From: Candidatus Binatia bacterium
GTDB lineage: Bacteria; Desulfobacterota; Binatia; UBA9968; JAJDTQ01
Reading direction: 5' to 3'
Length of the DNA: 64,000 nt
NCBI GenBank assembly: GCA_963666515.2
Contig: OY762897.2
Span: 1,792,001 to 1,856,000, forward strand
Position 1 is the first letter of the stretch. Every line of letters begins with the position of its first letter. The notes below the pieces were generated by a model that saw only the letters and a program-made list of their open reading frames with translations, was not told where the DNA came from and searched no databases. This document shows positions 1,878 to 10,878 of this stretch, in pieces. Position numbers and translations under genes: made by a program.

Positions 1878-3421
1878 TGGTGGCCAATTTCTCCGAGACA
1901 CGACTACCCGGTTCGCGTCTTGCCCCTCCCCGCCCCTCCGCCATGATTGAGGCTCTGCGCGGGCTCGGCTACTCCGCAGCGACCGCAGTTGCGGACATCA
2001 TCGACAACAGTATCTCTGCCAGTGCCAAGGCGGTAACACTGGAATTCGCATGGGCCGGCGAGACCAGCCATGTGTCGATCTTGGATGACGGGCGAGGCAT
2101 GGACGGGCAGGAGATGGACGCGGCGATGCGACTCGGCGAGCGGAGCCCACTTGACGCACGCGCGGCGAGCGACCTCGGGCGTTTTGGTCTCGGGCTCAAG
2201 ACGGCTTCCTTCTCGCAGTGCCGGCGGTTGACCGTTGCAAGTATCCGGGGCGAGCGTATGAACTGCCTGCGCTGGGACCTCGATGTGCTCTCAGCGTGTG
2301 CGGATGACGGGTGGTATCTCCTTGAAGGCCCGGCGGCGGGGTCGGAGCATTTGCTGCAGCCGCTGCTTTCAGCCGGTCGTGGAACGCTGGTCGTCTGGGA
2401 GCGTCTTGACCGGATCGTTACACCCGGTTCCGACGAGCAAGACTTCCTTGACCTTATTGATGGCGTGGAGCGACATCTCGCCATGGTGTTCCACCGCTAT
2501 CTCGATGGCGAGTGTGCGGGTTTGCAACTGGCTATCAATGGGCGTCCGTTGAAGGCCTGGGACCCGTTCCTTCGTAACCATCCGGCAACTTGGTCCTCCC
2601 CTGTCGAAAAGATCCGCTCTGAGGCCGGTACGGTGGAGGTGCAGTGTCACGTTCTGCCACATAAGGATCACCTCTCGGCTCAGCAGGAGTCGTCGGCGGC
2701 CGGCCCGCATGGGTGGACTGTACAGCAAGGATTTTATGTCTACCGCAACCTCAGGCTGCTCTTGGCGGGAAGCTGGCTTGGTCTTGGACAGGGTCGCTCC
2801 TGGACCAAGGAAGAGGCACATCGTCTGGCCCGGTTGCGGCTCGATATTCCCAATTCTGCTGATGCGGCGTGGAAGATCGACATCAGGAAATCAACTGCCA
2901 GTCCACCGCCAGCCCTCAAGGCGCATCTGACCAAGCTTTCAGAGGAGACACGGGCGCGAGCGCGCCGTGTGTTTGCCAACCGGGGACAACCGGTTGCCAT
3001 CGACCCTGGCCAGCCTGTGGTCCAGGCTTGGCGCGCCGAACATGCGACAGTTGGCATCCGATACAGAATCGACCGCGACCATCCCGCCGTGCGATCAGTT
3101 CTCGACGATGCAGGCAACATTGCCGCACCTGTTCAAGCTATGCTGCGGGTGATCGAGGAGACGGTGCCCATACAGCGCATCTGGCTCGACACCACCGAGG
3201 GACAAGAGACACCCCGGACAAATTTCGCCGGTGAGCCCTCTTCGGAAGTACGCAAGGTCCTTATGGTGATGTTCCGTAATCTGGTTCTGCGCAAGAACAT
3301 GTCGCCACATCTCGCACGGCAACGGCTTCTTCAAACAGAGCCGTTCAACAATTACCACGATCTCATCGCCTCACTGCCCGATGATCCACACCCAGGAGAA
3401 CCGGATGGCGTCCACGACTGA
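1877..3421 (+). CDS. mzaB: GHKL (MutL/MORC-like) ATPase, MzaB-like
   Basis: Motifs ADIIDNS, DDGRGM and GRFGLGLK; TGATG overlap with the upstream stop. Confidence 0.85.
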   Translation: MVANFSETRLPGSRLAPPRPSAMIEALRGLGYSAATAVADIIDNSISASAKAVTLEFAWAGETSHVSILDDGRGMDGQEMDAAMRLGERSPLDARAASDLGRFGLGLKTASFSQCRRLTVASIRGERMNCLRWDLDVLSACADDGWYLLEGPAAGSEHLLQPLLSAGRGTLVVWERLDRIVTPGSDEQDFLDLIDGVERHLAMVFHRYLDGECAGLQLAINGRPLKAWDPFLRNHPATWSSPVEKIRSEAGTVEVQCHVLPHKDHLSAQQESSAAGPHGWTVQQGFYVYRNLRLLLAGSWLGLGQGRSWTKEEAHRLARLRLDIPNSADAAWKIDIRKSTASPPPALKAHLTKLSEETRARARRVFANRGQPVAIDPGQPVVQAWRAEHATVGIRYRIDRDHPAVRSVLDDAGNIAAPVQAMLRVIEETVPIQRIWLDTTEGQETPRTNFAGEPSSEVRKVLMVMFRNLVLRKNMSPHLARQRLLQTEPFNNYHDLIASLPDDPHPGEPDGVHD

Positions 3422-4399
3422 CCAACGGGTAATCAAGCTCGTTCAGGAACTCCTCCTCGATGAGGAAAACAGGGCAGCAGTTACACCTGCTGTAATCGGT
3501 GAGAAAATCGAGCTTGTACTCACCATGAACCCGAGATGGCGCGATGGGCTTGACAAACAGGCGATTACGGATGAACTCATCCGCCGGTTCAGCCTCTGGA
3601 TCGGCCAAGACACTACCCTCCAAAGCACCGCGGGCCACAAGGATTGGCTGACAACGGCCCGCAAGCAGGATTGGCGATACTGGCAGCGCTATCGCGAATG
3701 GCTGGAGCGAGACCTGTCCTTCAAGGTCGTCGAAGGACTTGACCGGTCCACGGATTCCGTTCTCGCCTTACTGGAGGACCCCAGACGCGAGGGAACGTGG
3801 GACCGTCGGGGGTTGGTGGTGGGGCACGTCCAATCCGGCAAGACAGGCCACTACAGCGGCCTCATCTGCAAGGCTGCCGATGCCGGCTACAAGATCGTCA
3901 TCGTGTTGGCGGGTTTACACAACAATCTGCGTTCACAGACACAAATGCGTCTCGATGAAGCATTCCTCGGCTACGAGACAAGCGCCTTCAATGACGAGGC
4001 TTTGGTACCCTTCGGCGTCGGGGAAATTGATGCGGACCCCGACATACGGCCAAACTATGCGACCAACCGCACGGAGAAAGGGGATTTCAACACGCGAGTC
4101 GCAAGGAATTTCGGCATCACCCCTGAAAAGCGCCCCTGGCTCTTTGTCGTGAAAAAGAACAAATCCGTCCTTACGCGGTTGCTTGACTGGCTACGCAATC
4201 ACGTCGCCAACTCCCAAGATCAAGAGACGGGTCGGCGAATAGTCACCAATCTGCCACTCCTCCTCATAGATGACGAGGCCGACCACGCTAGAATCCTTGA
4301 TCGACAGGATCTTGACTCAGGAAGACAAGATATTTGAACTGGACTTCGTTCGTACATGAATACTATCGTAGGCCATCGCGAGTTGTAACGCTCGGTAGT

Positions 4400-6007
4400 T
4401 TAAGCGACGAGCTTCGCCTCATCGCAAATGGCATCGAGGTTCCTGGTGATGGCGGCAAAGCGCCGATGGGTCTTGGTATTGCCGCTCACGGCGTCGGGCG
4501 CAAGATGGGCCAGGCCGGGGCGAAGGATGCGGTTGTAGACACGCGTGTAGAACATCGCCACCTTGAGGCCGTGTTCGGTCAAGTGGTAGCGGTAGGCGCC
4601 GGGGATGCGCTCGATCAGGCCGTGCAGGCGCAGGCGTCTCAGGTCGTAACTCATTCGGCCCGGGCGCATTGGACTGGGATCGAGGCCCAGGAGTGCACCG
4701 AGGTGCCCGCGCAGGTCGCGGTTGGAGAAGCCGCGGGCCGAAAGAGTGAACAAGAGCAGGGCCTGCATCAGAGCCTGCACGCGCTCATCGGCGAAGCGCA
4801 GGGCCGAGGCGCGTTGTCCGTGGAACTCCAGGCCGCGTTGATGGCGTTGGAGTTCGTCTTCACCCAGGGCACAGTCGTGGCTGATGGTTTCTATCTGCAA
4901 CAGACGACGGTTGGCTGTGAAGCCGACCTGGCACAACGCCGCCAGGTTAGACAGCCGCCGGCCCAGGGCGAAGTCATAGGTGTCGTTGACGGTGGTCTCG
5001 GTGCGCAGCGCCTGCCCTTCCTTGTGGTACTGCTTGATGCGCGAGTGCTTGTAGTCCACGTGCAAGGAAGGGGTGACGCCTGCGGTGATGACCCGGGTAC
5101 GGAACCGACCGGGGGTGCGCCGGGTGACCCGGCGCTGGAAGATCAACTGCACCTGGCTGGGGCGACCGAGATCGAGGTTCTCGCGGATCACGTCCTCGAA
5201 AAAGACGCGGCCCGAGGCCGGGCGGTCGAGCACCTGGGTCAGGCTGAACTCCGCTTGCAGGATGGAGATGTCGTAGCGCAGACCGGCGCGACGGTCCTGA
5301 GGCGTATACGGATGCGGCAGGCGATCGAACCACTTGCGCGCCAGTCTGTCGATGAAAGCGGCATCGAAGCCTTCGCAGATCTGTTGCAGCGCCTCGGGGT
5401 CTCCGCAGCAGCGCACGCCGTTGTCCAAAGCCTCGAACGGGATGCCGCGCTCGCGCAACTGGCACTTGGCGTACTCGTTGCCGTTGAGGCACAGCTTGCC
5501 GTTGTACGGGAAGTAGGTGCAGAACTTGATGAAGAACGGCCCCGCCTGTTTGTCCACGCAATAGAAATACACATGGTTGACCATCGCGGTAGACGAGACC
5601 ACCCACGGATAGGTGACCCCGGTGTCCGGGTTCCGGCGCCGCTCGGTGCGCATCACACGGGCCTTCTCCTGCGCTATCCCGATGTACAAAACCCCTTCGG
5701 TTCCCTTGAACCGCCCCAGGTACTCCTGCGTCACCTCGTCCTTGCGCTGGCCCTTCTTGAAGTGCACCACCTCGATCTGCTCCCGCTCCGCAAAGTCCTT
5801 CACCGCCTGCACGAACTCCCGACTCTTGGGCGCCAGCGCCACCGTCGACGCAAACCGCTGGCCATGGTGCTTGTGCAGATACCCCACTACCCCGCCCACG
5901 CTCTGCAACTGCGGCACATACAGGTTCAAGTACAGGCGATCCACCGACTCGTATTCCAGCGTCACGTGATCGCGCAATACTTCCGCTACGGTTTGTGGTA
6001 GGCTCAT
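4400..6007 (-). CDS. Putative transposase/initiator of the insertion element (535 aa; rolling-circle Rep-like core plus C-terminal winged helix)
   Basis: ATG 6007 preceded by GGAG; only plausible gene in the element; IKQYHK...RTE motif; C-terminal SYDLRRLRLHGLIERIPGAYRYHLTEHG is wHTH-like. Confidence 0.75.
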   Translation of the reverse strand: MSLPQTVAEVLRDHVTLEYESVDRLYLNLYVPQLQSVGGVVGYLHKHHGQRFASTVALAPKSREFVQAVKDFAEREQIEVVHFKKGQRKDEVTQEYLGRFKGTEGVLYIGIAQEKARVMRTERRRNPDTGVTYPWVVSSTAMVNHVYFYCVDKQAGPFFIKFCTYFPYNGKLCLNGNEYAKCQLRERGIPFEALDNGVRCCGDPEALQQICEGFDAAFIDRLARKWFDRLPHPYTPQDRRAGLRYDISILQAEFSLTQVLDRPASGRVFFEDVIRENLDLGRPSQVQLIFQRRVTRRTPGRFRTRVITAGVTPSLHVDYKHSRIKQYHKEGQALRTETTVNDTYDFALGRRLSNLAALCQVGFTANRRLLQIETISHDCALGEDELQRHQRGLEFHGQRASALRFADERVQALMQALLLFTLSARGFSNRDLRGHLGALLGLDPSPMRPGRMSYDLRRLRLHGLIERIPGAYRYHLTEHGLKVAMFYTRVYNRILRPGLAHLAPDAVSGNTKTHRRFAAITRNLDAICDEAKLVA

Positions 6008-6011
6008 GTCC

Positions 6012-6153
6012 GGCTCCGGTTGCTTCGGGCTTTTATGCCCATTTGACCCTTTGAGGTCCGACCTTGCAAGGTCCCATGACCAGGGATTCAATCCCTGCTA
6101 CAAGCGACCGGAGCCAATCCCCTTACCCCCTCGTCGGTCTGAGGCGAAGCCTC
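6012..6153 (-). promoter_or_regulatory. Structured 5' leader/terminus of the insertion element
   Basis: Closing stem 6012-6025/6102-6115 encloses hairpins 6027-6040, 6045-6058, 6060-6073 and 6081-6097; terminal hairpin 6141-6153. Confidence 0.65.
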
Positions 6154-8071
6154 GCTAGTGTTGATACGCGGGAAATCCTGGTGGACGAGAGTGGCAGGCC
6201 AGACGATGAGCATGAGCCTACAGCCATCAATCGGCTCGTCCGCCGAGTCCTGCACGTTTTCTCACGCGCAGCCTATGTCGGATATACGGCGACCCCCTTC
6301 GCAAACATCTTCATACACGAACAGGCATCCACTCGTAACGAGGGTGCCGACCTCTTCCCCGCCGCCTTTGTCATCAACCTTGCAGCCCCCTCCAACTACA
6401 TCGGTCCGTCAAAAGTGTTCGGCGCTCGCACGGAGTTGGATCGCAGCGACGCACTGCCGTTGGTACGACTCGTGGCGGATTTCGATGGATGGATGCCCAC
6501 CAAACACAAGAACGGCCATGTCCCACTATACGAAGGCAGAAGCGAGTTGCCCCCATCGCTGAACGAGGCCATCGACTCCTTCATCCTCGCCTGTGCCTTG
6601 CGGCGACTGCGTGGACAGGAAACGGCGCACTGCTCGATGCTCGTCCATGTTACCCGCTACACTTCCGTCCAGGCACTTGTTCATGCCCAGGTAGAAGAGC
6701 GTGTCCACCATATACACCAGAGACTGTATCGCAGAACGGGAGGACACGAGGCGATCCTTTCGTCCTTGCGGTCACTCTGGGAGCAGGATTTCGCCCCGAC
6801 CACGGCGGCCATGGCCAAGTTAATGCCTGATGAGTTGGCCCATGGCACAACGACCTGGGAGCATATCGAGCCACACTTGGTGGAGACAGTTGCCGACATC
6901 CAGGTACGTATGATCAATGGTACTGCCAAGGATGCACTGGACTACGCCGAGAATCAGGAGACCGGGCTGAAGGTCATCGCCATCGGCGGCGACAAGCTGG
7001 CACGCGGACTCACCCTGGAAGGGTTAACCGTAAGCTACTTCCTGCGCGCCACGAAGATGTACGACACACTGATGCAAATGGGACGTTGGTTCGGCTACCG
7101 GCCTGGTTATTTGGATCTTGGCCGCCTCTATACGACAGGCGAGCTGGTCGATTGGTTCGAGCACATCGCCGACGCTTCAGAAGAGTTGCGAGAGGAATTC
7201 GATTTCATGGCAGCGAGCGGTGCCACGCCACGCGAGTACGGTCTCAAGGTCCAGTCACATCCAGTACTGATGGTGACTTCCAGCATCAAGATGCGGACCG
7301 CCCGTGAGCTCGAATTGTCGTTCAGCGGCGGCCTTTCTGAAACCGTCAACTTCCACCGTGAGGCTTCAATTCTGCGCCAAAATCTTGACACGGCGCGGCG
7401 CTTCTTCTCAACGCTCAACACGCCGGAACGCAACCCCAGGCGTCGTCGCAACGGCGCGGAGCACGCATGGCGTGGGCTTCTATGGACAGATGTTCCCGTC
7501 GACAATGTGCTCAGTTTCTTGGAGGACTACCGCAGCCATCCAGAAGCCAGAAAGGCAAACGGCTTGCTGCTAGCCCAATTCATTCGTTCTCTTGTCGCAC
7601 GGAAGGAACTGACACGCTGGACCGTAGCTCTGATCGGCGGCGGCGAGGGCAAGACCATTTCGCTCGGTGAAGAAGTCTCCGTCGAGATGTTGCAGCGCGC
7701 TGCCCACGGACAGCACCTGGATCGCTACTCCATTCGGCGTCTCATGTCTCCGCGTGACGAAACGATCGACCTCGACGAGACGGCATGGTTGGCTGCGCTT
7801 GACGAAACGCGTCAGGCCTTTCACGCCGATCCCGCCCGCAACGGAACACGAGAGGAGCCAACCGTCCCTAATGGCCCGGCGATCCGGAAGATTCGCCCCA
7901 AGGAGCGGGGCGTTCTGTTCGTCTATGCCATCGATCCGGCTCTCGCCGGTCCTAATGCTGGTTTACCCGCAGATTCGCCGCCCGTCATCGGTTGGGCTGT
8001 CAGCTTCCCTGCAAGCAATTCTGGCGTGCGCGTGAAGTATCGCGTCAACAACATCTACTGGGACCAGGAAT

Positions 8072-9087
8072 ATGGCGGCGCGAACTGACATGGATGACCT
8101 GGACGCGGCATGGCGCGCCCTCCTCGGCAGTTCGGAGGGCGAAGGTGGAAAACTATTCCAATCACCAGCAGCGGGCCGTGCTCTTTGCTTGCCGGCCGGC
8201 ACTTCCCTGGCGACAAGGAAGCCCTGCTCGTCGGCTTCAGCGATATCCGGGCGATTCCGGAATCCCACCTGCCGCAAGGGAACGGCTTCGAGGTCGCTTG
8301 TCTCACCACCGACCCTACAGGAGGTGATCATTTATGGGTGGCGCTTGCCCGCAGGACAGACGGAAGCCGGGAAATCTTCGCGATGATGGCGAAGGACCTG
8401 CTTGCACTGCTTGATAAAGGGGCACCCAGCGAGCAGGGCATGCTTCGCGGGTTCCTGTCACGTGTCCGTGCTTGGCAGGAATTCATGGACCGACACAGGG
8501 AGGGGGTACTCTCTCCCGACGCAGAACTCGGCCTGTTTGGCGAACTGATCGTAATCGACCGCTTTATTGATGCAGGGATACCGGAGAAACACGTCATAGA
8601 CGCTTGGCAGGGACCGCTCGACGGACTGCAGGATTTTTCGCTGGGCGGTGGTGGTATCGAGGTAAAGAGCACGTTATCAGCGAGAGGATTCGTCGCGACC
8701 ATTTCCTCCCTCGAACAGCTCGACGACAGCCTGTGCCAGCCACTATTCCTCGCGGCGGTGCGAATCCGCCTCGACACGACAGGCCTTACCCTGCCTGCAA
8801 TGTCCAACGCGATCCGAGAAAGGCTGCGAGACAACGTGGCGACACTCGACCTTTTTGAGGCACGCCTTATGCAAGCAGGGTTCCTGCGTGCCGCAACGGA
8901 GCGCTACACGCGACAATTTCGTCACGTTTCCACTGCTTTCCTTGCCGTGGACGACAATTTTCCGCGCCTCACGCGAGCAAACGTCGATCCCGCGATTAGG
9001 CGGGCTCGCTATGAGGTCAATCTTGAGATGGCCGGAGCGCCCGATGTCGGTCTTGCACATGCGCTTGAAGCTTTGGGGATGATCTGA
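8072..9087 (+). CDS. mzaD: PD-(D/E)XK motif protein (DUF4420, MzaD-like); probable 1-bp frameshift near 8145, or an alternative start at 8110
   Basis: ELGLFGEL, WQGP...QDF...IEVKST, ISSLEQLD; position between Z1 and AIPR; N-terminus split between two frames. Confidence 0.75.
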
Positions 9088-10878
9088 ATGGAATTGAACG
9101 AATTTCTACTACAAACGCGGGCTGAGGTGAAAGAGGCCATTGCAGACCGCCTCCCTGTACCGAACAGCCCCTATCCTTACGAGGAAACAATCTTCACCGA
9201 GGTGGTCATGGAGCACATGTCCCAGATCGGCATGACCTTCGAACCGGAGCCGTGCCACTACTCGGCCACCGTTGGCAATGCACGGCTGCGCCTCAGCGGT
9301 TACGCGGTCTCCGAGGACGCCGATCAGCTTGACCTGTTCGTGAGTCTTTACGAGGGCGTCGAGAGTGTTACCTCGATCCCCGATTCGGAGACAAAAACTG
9401 CTGCCGCTCAGTGCCTGCGTTTCCTGAAGCGCTGCGCAGAGGGGCGGCTCGCCGGAACCATGGATCAATCCAACGACGCCTATCCCGTCGTGCACACCAT
9501 CCAGGATGTCTATCCGCAACTCGATCAGATCCGCATCTATGTACTGACCGACCGCCAAGCCAAAGCAAAAAACTTCAAGACCCGAGAGGTACACGACAAG
9601 ACCGTCAAGCTGGAGGTCATGGACATTGAGCGCCTCTGCCGGCACTGGTCAGAAGGAAAGCCACGAGACGAACTCATAATCAATTTTCAGGAAGTATCGG
9701 GCGGCGCACTTCCCTGCGTCTATGTGCCCGGCGAGACGGCTGACTACGACTACGCCCTGACCGCCATTCCCGGCGAGGCCCTGCGTTTCATCTACGAGAA
9801 GTACGGCGCACGATTGCTGGAGGCCAATGTCCGCTCCTTCCTCAGTGCCAGCGGGAAGGTGAATAAGGGTATCAGCGAGACACTGCGAAGGGCACCCGAC
9901 CGCTTCATGGCTTACAACAACGGCATCGTCCTCGTCGCGGACGAAATGCGCATGGGGTCGGCCGAAAACGGCGCACCAGGCATCCTCTGGCTCAAGGGCA
10001 TGAACATCGTCAATGGCGGCCAAACCACGGCGTCGCTCTATTTCACAAAAAAGAGGGTTCCAGATACGGACCTCCGCCGTGTCCGGGTTCCGGCCAAGAT
10101 CATCGTGTTGCACTCCGATGATCCTGCAGGAGAAGAGGGCCTGATCTCCGACATATCGAAATACGCCAACAGTCAAAACTCGGTGCGATTATCTGATCTG
10201 TCGGCAAACAGGCCCTTTCATATCGAAGTCGAGAAGCTTTCTCTCACCGTCTATTGTCCAGATGGCGTGGGACGATGGTTTTACGAACGGGCTGCTGGCA
10301 GCTACAAGACCATGTTAACGCGCGAGGGCACGACCCCGGCAAAGCTTCGCAAATTGAAAGCCGACCTTCCCTCATCTCGCAAGATCATCAAGACGGATTT
10401 GGCCAAATTTCTCAATGCCTGGGAACGCAAACCCCACTATGTCAGCCTGGGCGCACAGAAAAATTTTGAGCGCTTCATGGATGATTTCGCGGCTGGGGAT
10501 GCACAACAAGAGAGACCACTGCCAAGTGTTACCGACTGGAAGCACATGGTTGCCAAGGCGATCATCTTCAAGACAGCACACAAACTGATCCGCCCCATGT
10601 TCCCGGCCTTCCAGGCCAACGTTACCGCCTATACCGTATCCGTCCTGTCCGAGCGCATCGGTGACAAGCTGGACCTCGACAGGGTGTGGCAACGCCAAGC
10701 TATTTCAGAACGGCTCCAAGAACAAATCCAGGTGTGGGCGAGAGAAGTGAACGACACGCTTCACCGCAACGCCGAAGGGCGGATGATTTCCGAATGGGCC
10801 AAGAAGGCTGAATGCTGGCAGGCCGTGCGCACAAGCCTCCTTTCCAAACCGTTGGCCAGCATACCCGAACTGGCTTGA
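9088..10878 (+). CDS. mzaE: AIPR family protein (MzaE-like)
   Basis: LLEANVRSFL, FMAYNNGI, IVNGGQTTAS and ANSQN motifs. Confidence 0.88.
   Translation: MELNEFLLQTRAEVKEAIADRLPVPNSPYPYEETIFTEVVMEHMSQIGMTFEPEPCHYSATVGNARLRLSGYAVSEDADQLDLFVSLYEGVESVTSIPDSETKTAAAQCLRFLKRCAEGRLAGTMDQSNDAYPVVHTIQDVYPQLDQIRIYVLTDRQAKAKNFKTREVHDKTVKLEVMDIERLCRHWSEGKPRDELIINFQEVSGGALPCVYVPGETADYDYALTAIPGEALRFIYEKYGARLLEANVRSFLSASGKVNKGISETLRRAPDRFMAYNNGIVLVADEMRMGSAENGAPGILWLKGMNIVNGGQTTASLYFTKKRVPDTDLRRVRVPAKIIVLHSDDPAGEEGLISDISKYANSQNSVRLSDLSANRPFHIEVEKLSLTVYCPDGVGRWFYERAAGSYKTMLTREGTTPAKLRKLKADLPSSRKIIKTDLAKFLNAWERKPHYVSLGAQKNFERFMDDFAAGDAQQERPLPSVTDWKHMVAKAIIFKTAHKLIRPMFPAFQANVTAYTVSVLSERIGDKLDLDRVWQRQAISERLQEQIQVWAREVNDTLHRNAEGRMISEWAKKAECWQAVRTSLLSKPLASIPELA

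Follow-up and report, generated by a model that had tools for sequence, protein, structure and literature searches.

Elements of the IS5 group carry inverted repeats and a DDE_Tnp_1 transposase and target CTAG-like sites, at which they leave a true 4-bp duplication, IS91 (about 1.8 kb, a size similar to that of the element described here) targets GTTC/CTTG, and Helitrons target AT. According to PMC6006769, IS200/IS605 elements lie with one end against the target tetranucleotide and close the other with a final tetranucleotide of their own, and their hairpins are subterminal. Helitrons are described as forming circles and using alternative ends, and at the right end of Helraiser 11 nt separate a 19-bp palindrome from the CTAG-3' that follows it (PMC4778049). 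In elements of the IS110 type, a non-coding region is reported to encode a guide RNA that is essential for circle formation (bioRxiv 10.1101/2024.04.26.591405). The element analysed here, found in a 64,000-nucleotide stretch of Candidatus Binatia DNA (the window), is best read as a new insertion sequence family that joins an end geometry like that of IS200/IS605, IS91 and Helitrons to an unclassified enzyme; it is probably an autonomous, recently active member of a widespread, uncatalogued family with a CTAG target, two unlike ends and no duplication.

The insertion sequence occupies positions 4292..6158, its transposase-sense strand being the minus strand of the window, and it interrupts the anti-phage gene mzaC on the plus strand. 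The split is exact: the N-terminal part (3381..4291) aligns with positions 3-292 of the NCBIfam MzaC profile (E = 9e-155), and the C-terminal part (6159..8088), which contains the Z1 domain (Pfam Z1, E = 2e-85), with positions 293-805. Judged by its equivalog profiles, the host locus reads as an MZA anti-phage system, with MzaB (800 bits), MzaC in two pieces (517 + 787 bits) and MzaD (346 bits) in a row, each score below the curated full-length cut-off and the alignments nonetheless full-profile. In G008, a genome of the same genus with 98% identity to the 492-nt flank, mzaC is uninterrupted (its ORF runs on unbroken for more than 803 aa) and the site reads GACCACGCTAGTGTCGAT, with one CTAG, and therefore the insert measures 1867 bp when one CTAG is counted. 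The target-derived CTAG (4288..4291, no strand assigned) abuts the 3' end of the element in transposase orientation and is part of mzaC (codons GCT AG|T). The original prediction, which described an 1867-bp insert splitting mzaC with CGCTAG at both junctions (4286-4291 and 6153-6158), a hairpin GAGGC-GAA-GCCTC at 6141-6153 and a single antisense gene, is thus borne out by the sequence and by the empty site. It had also called for a comparison of filled and empty sites and of the two extra base pairs: the base preceding the left CTAG differs among the copies in the same genome, so the extra C-G ahead of it is peculiar to the mzaC copy, while the G preceding the right CTAG is part of the element.

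The element is mobile. Its own genome holds nine identical copies, each at a different CTAG with different flanks and with CTAG on both sides in 9/9, and none was found in the five same-genus genomes searched (G008 included). In four sequencing runs of the same organism, the depth of the element was 11-17 times that of its flanks. Five other genomes contain 5 to 20 LE motifs each, and the reversed-pattern control gave 0. Identity between copies follows the proposed boundaries in 11 of 12 multi-copy sets, starting at the 4-mer before CGAGG and ending at or just after a CTAG; the twelfth set is a duplicated region, and in two sets of the CCAG/ACAG type identity begins further upstream than this 4-mer.

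The only long gene of the element is an ORF of 535 aa (4403..6007, minus strand, ATG at 6007), the presumed transposase. Its N-terminal ~420 aa show no recognised fold, and a winged helix lies near the C-terminus (about residues 430-500), where matches to MarR/ArsR-like proteins are weak and a homologue with 25% identity scores above the Pfam HTH_5 cut-off. Apart from this winged helix the protein has no match in Pfam, NCBIfam, PHROGs, PADLOC or PDB sequences: the library scans returned no DDE family, no DEDD_Tnp_IS110 or Transposase_20, no Phage_integrase or Resolvase catalytic domain of the kind that marks IS607-like and integrative elements, and no Y1_Tnp or Y2_Tnp even at E<=10. In hhalign comparisons, which are weak tests given small home-made profiles of 1 to 14 sequences, the probability was 0.4% against Y1 (14 sequences, two wrong ORFs among them), 0.1% against Y2 (four IS91-type sequences), 0.2% against two IS110 transposases, 0.1% against 12 tyrosine recombinases and one serine recombinase, and 0.1% against DDE_Tnp_1. 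The invariant residues are D23, R24, Q113, E114, Y147, D152, E253, K325, Y327, R335 and E337; 25 diverse full-length members share no invariant histidine, and no serine is invariant among the family members aligned. Homologues are numerous (8000 of 8000 scored candidates significant, those with names all called 'hypothetical protein'; 10,355 representative clusters at E<=1e-3; at least 583 relatives in one-genome-per-species contigs), and the relatives listed come from Acidobacteriota, Planctomycetota, Chloroflexota, Actinomycetota, Pseudomonadota, Verrucomicrobiota and Gemmatimonadota. We found the family neither in the protein libraries nor in the literature searched. The lack of HUH, DDE, DEDD and Ser/Tyr recombinase signatures in the original prediction agrees with the scans and the small profile comparisons. 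No match to a characterised IS transposase was found, and the relatives are multi-copy, with conserved ends, in many phyla. At the level of sequence and profile there is no similarity to known transposase families, although a known catalytic fold could still lie beneath what sequence comparison detects; the element is a strong candidate for a distinct transposon class.

The two ends are unlike each other, and each is strongly conserved across phyla. At the 5' end (transposase sense) relatives have CTAR, a C, the hairpin GAGGC-NNN-GCCTC and then AGACCGACGAG; in the mzaC copy these correspond to the element's own terminal tetranucleotide (6155..6158, minus strand; CTAG here and CTAA, CTAC, CCAG, TTAG or ACAG in relatives), the terminal hairpin (6141..6153, minus strand; GAGGC-TTC-GCCTC in the sense strand, GAGGC-GAA-GCCTC in the plus strand) and, directly 3' of it, the conserved block (6130..6140, minus strand), which hardly varies among 48 aligned leaders that come from many phyla. 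The 5-bp hairpin alone is not thermodynamically unusual, and the case for it rests on conservation and compensatory changes among relatives: it is 100% paired in the 48 sequences, with GC/AU swaps at 3/5 pairs (GGGGC/GCCCC, GAGAC/GTCTC and GAGGT/ACCTC). The 3' end of relatives consists of AAACTTGACTCA, ~22 nt, CAAGGNNN and then CTAG. In the window this non-coding end (RE) spans 4292..4402 on the minus strand, stop codon included; its terminal GATCAAGGATT contains the family-wide CAAGG block (CCTTG at 4295-4299 of the plus strand), and the upstream AAACTTGACTCA block is degenerate in the mzaC copy. Across 45 aligned RE sequences the AAG of the CAAGG block and the next CTAG are invariant and at least 90% keep AAACTTGAC, the CAAG N4-6 CTAG end having been chosen by a regular expression that demands it. 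As the original prediction held, terminal inverted repeats are lacking: none of the 37 inverted pairs in 4270-6180 joins the termini, and the inverted match nearest to them (11 nt, 4411-4421 against 6140-6150) is about what chance would give by a rough estimate without tool control.

The CTAG beside the hairpin had been claimed as an end of the element and not as one half of a plain duplication, and the junctions of relatives argue for this. Over 68 distinct junction pairs, CTAA stands on the left in 37, CTAG in 25, CCAG in 4, ACAG in 1 and TTAG in 1, and the 4-mers of the two sides are unequal in 43 of the 68; the right-side CTAG in 68/68 is by construction, because the RE ends were found by a pattern that requires it, and 15 rows without this pattern were left out, among them contigs that are short or truncated and variant ends (for example L059, L084, L089 and L091). 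A Rhodococcus copy has CTAC as its left 4-mer, and CTAG stands at this site in two copies of the target repeat that lack the element (identity 94.6% and 96.2%); at a CTAA-type site in Caballeronia a ~90%-identical orthologue has CTCG, which differs from CTAG at one position and from CTAA at two. Furthermore, CCAG is common to two diverged mycobacterial copies with different flanks, some relatives carry an inverted duplicate of the LE with the 4-mer included, and a truncated copy terminates at an internal CTA + G where the full copy has CTAT. Two cases fit a target-derived left 4-mer better: L042, which differs from its CTAA siblings by CTAG and one base beside the RE, and the tandem copy L030, which has CTAG where its sibling L081 has CTAA. 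On balance these comparisons support a hairpin-side tetranucleotide that travels with the element and is lineage-specific (CTAA, CTAG, CTAC, CCAG), the CTAG at the other junction being the target's own, and with the two assigned in this way the target is not truly duplicated and the termini lack inverted repeats. The preferred target context in the 68 pairs is roughly AANNN^CTAG-Y-G (A at -4 in 42/68 and at -5 in 33/68; C in 27 and T in 19 at +1; G in 32 at +2).

An ordinary DDE element of the IS5 kind, moving by cut-and-paste or copy-paste, would also leave CTAG on both sides, as in all nine own copies, and one CTAG at the empty site, if it made a 3- or 4-bp CTA(G) duplication and its inverted repeats had degenerated beyond recognition; IS5 shares the preference for CTAG-like targets and the 4-bp length. 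Such an element is, however, contradicted by the unequal flanking 4-mers, by the Rhodococcus site (CTAC against a CTAG target) and by the CCAG-type elements, which cannot be a CTA duplication, and the two ends, though dissimilar, are each conserved from phylum to phylum, with no inverted repeats and no DDE match. We regard this explanation as very improbable.

The end geometry is like that of elements that move as single strands. A very divergent HUH element would nick one strand beside tetranucleotides, form a phosphotyrosine link and move a single-stranded circle or a rolled-off strand, and the tetranucleotide geometry, with the target's at one end and the element's own past a subterminal hairpin at the other and with neither inverted repeats nor a duplication, recalls IS200/IS605 (IS608 and ISDra2, with TnpA) as described in PMC6006769. 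The correspondence holds if the element is read on the strand antisense to its gene, so that the equivalent of the active strand would be the antisense one. Asymmetric ends are also seen in Helitrons and IS91/ISCR, and the plus strand here ends with a palindrome followed by CTAG-3', as in the description of Helraiser (PMC4778049). Tyrosines Y147 and Y327 are invariant, and the end truncated at an internal CTA resembles the use of alternative ends which, together with head-to-tail junctions, is a further likeness to Helitrons as described there. Against this, the absence of an invariant histidine means that there is no HUH motif, the 535-aa protein with its winged helix has no Y1 profile similarity and none to Y2_Tnp or Rep/helicase proteins, the ends differ from those of IS200/IS605 in being unlike in sequence and in having the hairpin 1 nt from the element's tetranucleotide, and the palindrome differs from that of IS91 and Helitrons in being of 5 bp, 1 nt from the end, with CTAG as target. 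The insertion bias of IS200/IS605 towards the lagging-strand template has no counterpart here: of the nine copies in the element's own genome, 6 agree in orientation with the GC-skew replichores and 3 do not, and in two other closed chromosomes (G061 and G064) the best two-block fits (7/9 and 14/20) are no better than shuffles, these tests resting on small copy numbers. Head-to-tail RE-CTAG-LE junctions and short LE+RE derivatives occur in assembled contigs (L030, L062/63, L082, L085 and L126-L129), with CTAG at 8/8 of the junctions. Such junctions need not come from circles: a copy that inserts beside one already resident can also produce them, and insertion beside a CTAG-bearing end accounts equally well for the eight; neither circle junctions nor excision products appeared in the assembled contigs aligned to the window. 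Movement by a single strand or a rolling circle, part of the original prediction, stays a conjecture, and we consider a HUH enzyme improbable.

Between the terminal blocks and the gene lies a leader of ~150 nt, whose conserved multi-helix part (6011..6116, minus strand; RNA fold z = -3.4) consists of a closing stem GGCUCCGGUCG/CGACCGGAGCC (inverted pair I13) and inner hairpins. In the leader alignment 94.1% of cells are paired, as opposed to 85.1% in shuffles (0/500), compensatory changes occur at 16/21 pairs, and slid controls give 25-40%; judged by this covariation, the leader is predicted to fold into a conserved structure. The closing-stem mismatches, read on the sense strand, are A.C in 30 cells and G.U in 3, and with A.C so far above G.U the sense-strand RNA is not clearly the folded species. 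A structured non-coding region with strong covariation upstream of the gene, together with abutted ends in head-to-tail junctions and the lack of inverted repeats and of a duplication, is what would be expected of an RNA-assisted recombinase of the IS110/IS1111 kind, in which the leader would be transcribed into a structured RNA helping the protein to pair the abutted ends with the target, and its upstream position is that described for the IS110 type (bioRxiv 10.1101/2024.04.26.591405). We nevertheless think this reading unlikely. The protein has no DEDD or Transposase_20 domain and no profile similarity to IS110 transposases, and the target is not a long specific sequence but a 4-nt CTAG with weak context, the nine own copies sitting at unrelated sites; a programmable guide is therefore not needed, and since the targets share only CTAG and this context, one would not expect complementarity to a long target. 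In addition, the closing stem includes the ribosome-binding GGAG just upstream of the ATG, suggesting translational control, a search of the element gave no promoter-like site, and, as a further difference from IS110/IS1111, no junction promoter is evident.

The reading that we prefer, an uncatalogued insertion sequence family with an enzyme of its own, would place the parts of the element in the order (5' to 3', transposase sense) CTAR, C, hairpin, AGACCGACGAG, structured leader, 535-aa ORF, AAACTTGACTCA, ~22 nt and CAAGGNNN, with the element immediately 5' of the target CTAG, nothing duplicated, and the two ends presumably recognised separately. The protein might bind the ends through its C-terminal winged helix and, with a putative catalytic region in the N-terminal part that holds the invariant residues, break the DNA at both boundaries of the element; the 3' end would then be joined to the CTAR-LE, giving a head-to-tail junction or a circle, and the joined form would be transferred to a new CTAG. 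The closing stem of the leader may most simply limit translation, and the leader may also belong to the recognised end. The chemistry, like the circular form and the part given to the leader, is inferred. More tentatively, and with somewhat less than even confidence, we suggest that the 535-aa protein could found a transposase or recombinase class of its own, its catalytic fold being new to characterised mobile elements. It would recognise two unlike, structure-bearing ends and CTAG and move the element without duplication, the leader being part of the substrate or a cofactor. If this is true, one of the more abundant unannotated gene families of soil and sediment bacteria would represent a new way to move DNA.

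The winged helix is the only recognisable domain of the ORF, and it could suggest that the ORF is a DNA-binding passenger or regulator in an element moved by a host or unlinked enzyme acting at CTAG. We give this explanation very little credence: the ORF is the sole long gene and is intact in 9/9 copies, the same conserved ends accompany it in many phyla, and ~420 aa of it are conserved non-HTH sequence with invariant acidic, basic and tyrosine residues. The short derivatives that have no ORF lie beside full copies, as in other IS families.

The 1867-bp element (positions 4292-6158 of the window, minus strand) interrupts the anti-phage gene mzaC, part of the MZA system, and knocks it out. MzaB, the split MzaC and MzaD were all recognised by NCBIfam profiles in the window, and the two halves of mzaC join exactly at profile positions 292/293. 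A comparison of filled and empty sites, which the original prediction had proposed as a check, yielded an empty site in another genome of the same genus (G008), GACCACGCTAGTGTCGAT, with one CTAG and a flank 98% identical to that in the window; the mzaC reading frame of this genome is unbroken (>803 aa). Re-reading of the sequence also bore out CGCTAG at both junctions (4286-4291 and 6153-6158) and the terminal hairpin GAGGC-GAA-GCCTC (6141-6153), a renewed ORF call gave the single antisense gene expected (4403-6007, minus strand), and an inverted-repeat search found no pair joining both termini, as had been claimed. We class the element as an insertion sequence whose ends are hairpin-defined and asymmetric. 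Long ORFs at 3-1877 and 9088-10878 lie on either side of MzaB-MzaC-MzaD and could encode the other components of the MZA system, and a 555-aa open frame (4334-6001, plus strand) antisense to the presumed transposase gene is best explained as a shadow frame that arises in GC-rich coding sequence.

The genome that carries the insertion (4.67 Mb) holds nine copies of the element, 100% identical, in nine different places and with CTAG on both sides of each; the five same-genus genomes searched, G008 included, gave no match to it. In contigs from four runs of the same organism (X1-X4), element depth was 11-17 times flank depth, and loose ends past the element (6153-6159) include several flanks absent from the nine assembled sites; the extra flanks and the depth suggest further or ongoing insertions in the sister samples. 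One of these contigs diverges from the reference at 6153, ahead of the terminal CTAG. Joints, whether of a circle or of an empty site, were not found in the contigs of the four runs, a type of data from which rare forms drop out. A 22-nt motif of the 5' end (LE, the hairpin side in transposase orientation) occurs 5 to 20 times per genome in five other genomes, and a reversed-pattern control gave no occurrence. Two adjoining fragments of ~92 nt (L010 and L011, G000:C1:2645461-2645643, in the element's own genome), 90-92% identical to the element interior, look like relics of an older, diverged copy; DDE_Tnp_1 elements lie nearby at 2648529 and 2655651. In a relative on a Burkholderia sp. RPE67 plasmid (AP014580.1) the flanks are 3181 bp apart rather than ~1810 bp and the protein match ends at residue 433, so that this copy itself holds an extra insertion of ~1.4 kb.

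We compared the ends over 80 related loci from one-genome-per-species contigs, in which at least 583 relatives were confirmed, and set the end positions by where copies from the same genome cease to match (12 sets). The 5' end consists of a tetranucleotide (4-mer), C, GAGGC-NNN-GCCTC and AGACCGACGAG, and is near-invariant from Acidobacteriota to Actinomycetota, with compensatory variants of the hairpin (GGGGC/GCCCC, GAGAC/GTCTC, GAGGT/ACCTC). The 3' end (RE) has AAACTTGACTCA by the stop codon, ~22 nt, CAAGGNNN and then CTAG, and does not resemble LE. Identity between copies stops at or just past a CTAG in 11 of the 12 sets, the twelfth being a duplicated region. In the leaders of three loci (L073, L087 and L057) the first ~26 nt of LE are duplicated in inverted orientation 25-45 nt downstream, which makes a long palindrome.

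Among 68 distinct junction pairs the hairpin-side 4-mer was CTAA in 37, CTAG in 25, CCAG in four, and ACAG and TTAG in one each. The RE-side CTAG in 68/68 is by construction, because the pattern that located these ends required CTAG (15 rows without the pattern were dropped); independent support for it comes from the nine own-genome copies and the 12 within-genome copy sets. The unequal 4-mers on the two sides exclude a plain target duplication. An early model, in which the left 4-mer was the target and insertion occurred 3' of CTAR, was ruled out for a Rhodococcus copy, whose left junction reads ...GTAGTA|CTAC|CGGGGC whereas ...GTAGTA CTAG stands in two uninterrupted copies of its flanking repeat (94.6% and 96.2% identical). 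At a Caballeronia site with a CTAA-type element, an orthologue has a single 4-mer, CTCG, which differs from CTAG at one position and from CTAA at two; a truncated copy terminates in ...CATTCA+CTAG, and the corresponding internal sequence of the full copy is CATTCACTAT. CCAG is common to two diverged mycobacterial copies with different upstream flanks, another pair of copies has CACAACAC(C)AG in common, and the inverted LE duplicate of some relatives (L073 and L087) includes the 4-mer. These four sets of observations show that the hairpin-side 4-mer moves with the element and that CTAG is the target; positions 4288-4291 are therefore the target CTAG and 6155-6158 the element's own, in line with the original prediction. 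The proposal that the hairpin-side CTAG is element-encoded and not a plain duplication is upheld by the unequal 4-mers of the relatives and by the Rhodococcus CTAC opposite an uninterrupted CTAG. Contrary cases are one locus (L042) and a tandem copy (L030) that carry CTAG where their siblings carry CTAA, which we take as variants of the element's 4-mer, although a target-derived base would fit too. An exchange within the shared CTA is also possible for CTAN-type elements, but cannot apply to those of the CCAG type. With CTAG as the target, its context is approximately AANNN^CTAG-Y-G, with A at -4 in 42/68, C or T at +1 in 46/68 and G at +2 in 32/68. A CTAA-type copy (L079, noted together with G000:C1 at ~881.2 kb) has inserted precisely at the stop codon that closes a small conserved gene and has a second conserved gene downstream, the element's CTAA giving the final base of a His codon and the TAA stop; this site has a single place for the 4-mer and cannot separate CTAA from CTAG, because either gives a stop codon. 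Flank searches found no empty sites for the Burkholderia YI23 and Paraburkholderia copies.

The presumed transposase ORF (4403-6007, minus strand) encodes 535 aa and had no match in Pfam, NCBIfam, PHROGs, PADLOC or PDB sequences, with Pfam taken to E<=10, where the lone match (AbiEi_4) was at chance level. Hhalign gave a probability of 0.4% against HUH Y1 and 0.1-0.2% against Y2/IS91, IS110 DEDD, tyrosine recombinases, one serine recombinase and DDE_Tnp_1, all weak tests because the comparison profiles, our own build from neighbouring genomes, held only 1-14 sequences each; the original prediction had likewise seen no HUH, DDE, DEDD, Ser or Tyr recombinase signature. Across 25 aligned full-length members (29-96% identity), D23, R24, Q113, E114, Y147, G156, F159, P167, N175, N196, Q251, E253, F290, K325, Y327, R335, D345, Y454, L456 and L459 are invariant, E337 is nearly so, and no His or Ser is invariant. 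Residues ~430-500 gave weak MarR/ArsR-type winged-helix matches, and a plasmid homologue (25% identical) scored above the Pfam HTH_5 cut-off; longer members of the family (587-666 aa) showed no Pfam domains.

All 8000 of the 8000 candidates scored in a 90%-clustered collection were significant homologues, every named one being a 'hypothetical protein', mostly on contigs of ~1.8-2 kb. The family comprises 10,355 representative clusters (E<=1e-3) and is multi-copy in genomes of at least seven phyla; viral contigs gave one partial relative only, and a family-profile hmmsearch of the own genome (23,172 ORFs) returned the nine copies and one weak winged-helix match, nothing more. A full-text literature search, with ISfinder, subscription journals and supplementary files outside its scope, did not find a description of the family. 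Since this large, widespread family is named only 'hypothetical protein' and is modelled by no protein library searched, neither the elements nor the gene disruptions that result from them are picked up by genome annotation. It is a serious, if slightly less than even, possibility that the enzyme represents a new catalytic class.

The element resembles HUH-type elements in having a target tetranucleotide at one boundary and its own tetranucleotide beyond a hairpin at the other, with unlike ends and no duplication, the same end geometry that PMC6006769 describes for IS200/IS605. For Helraiser, PMC4778049 reports a palindrome 11 nt ahead of the CTAG-3' end, head-to-tail circles and the use of alternative ends; on the plus strand of the window the present element likewise terminates as hairpin-G-CTAG-3', and it starts just past a target CTAG. 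It differs from HUH-type elements in its 535-aa protein, which lacks an HUH signature. The insertions showed no replication-strand bias: 6/9 own-genome copies were concordant with replichores set by GC skew (origin near 3.70 Mb, terminus near 1.45 Mb), and for two further closed chromosomes shuffles did as well as the best two-block fits (7/9 and 14/20). Just past the 3.70 Mb minimum of the own genome, at ~3.8-4.0 Mb of G000:C1, GC skew is positive and exceptionally strong, with a mean of 0.119 over 200 kb versus ~0.01-0.03 elsewhere.

Between LE and the ATG lies a leader of ~150 nt that folds well (z = -3.4). Across 48 relatives, 94.1% of cells pair versus 85.1% in shuffles (0/500 reach it) and 25-40% with the partners slid, and both partners have changed in 16 of the 21 pairs (101 cells). 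The closing stem GGCUCCGGUCG/CGACCGGAGCC holds GGAG ahead of the ATG, which suggests translational control. Its mismatches are A.C in 30 cells versus G.U in three, so that the complementary strand would pair better there, whereas an inner hairpin has the opposite pattern (G.U 8, A.C 2); for the leader as a whole, MFE was lower on the sense strand in 33/47 non-tied cases. The folded species may be mRNA, antisense RNA or single-stranded DNA. Rfam (E<=1) gave only three matches, all at chance level, and no sigma-70-like promoter was found at 4200-6300. The structured leader upstream of the gene suggests an RNA-assisted route like that of IS110 (bioRxiv 10.1101/2024.04.26.591405), but neither the protein nor the short target supports it.

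The geometry of the element is established, and the chemistry that we infer is breakage at both boundaries by an as yet unclassified enzyme, which would then join RE to CTAR-LE and transfer the joined form to another CTAG. Head-to-tail RE-CTAG-LE junctions were present at L030, L062/63, L082 and L085, and in 4/4 metagenome contigs retrieved with a junction pattern permitting A or G. Gene-less derivatives of ~90-120 nt (L062/L063, ~940-1036, and L128), with the start of LE fused to RE and CTAG at each boundary, occur in tandem, next to full copies or to one another, and look like non-autonomous, MITE-like relatives. Such junctions and short derivatives are the forms expected of circles or of tandem insertions, which the head-to-tail junctions do not separate, since any LE that carries CTAG offers a target of its own. 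Strict 4-nt targeting without duplication, asymmetric hairpin-marked ends and an enzyme unlike known transposases at the sequence and profile level together point to a possible new mechanism of DNA breaking and joining, directly testable in a small single-gene system; mini-element assays would be simple, given how short and well defined the ends are and that mini-derivatives occur naturally. At the right junction of a copy on a Rhodococcus koreensis plasmid (L014, ~3183-3202), which reads CTAG CTAC CTAG CTAC CTAG, two surplus 8-nt units, each made of the element's own CTAC and a target CTAG, may have been left behind as footprints when the element inserted and excised repeatedly, or may reflect slippage.
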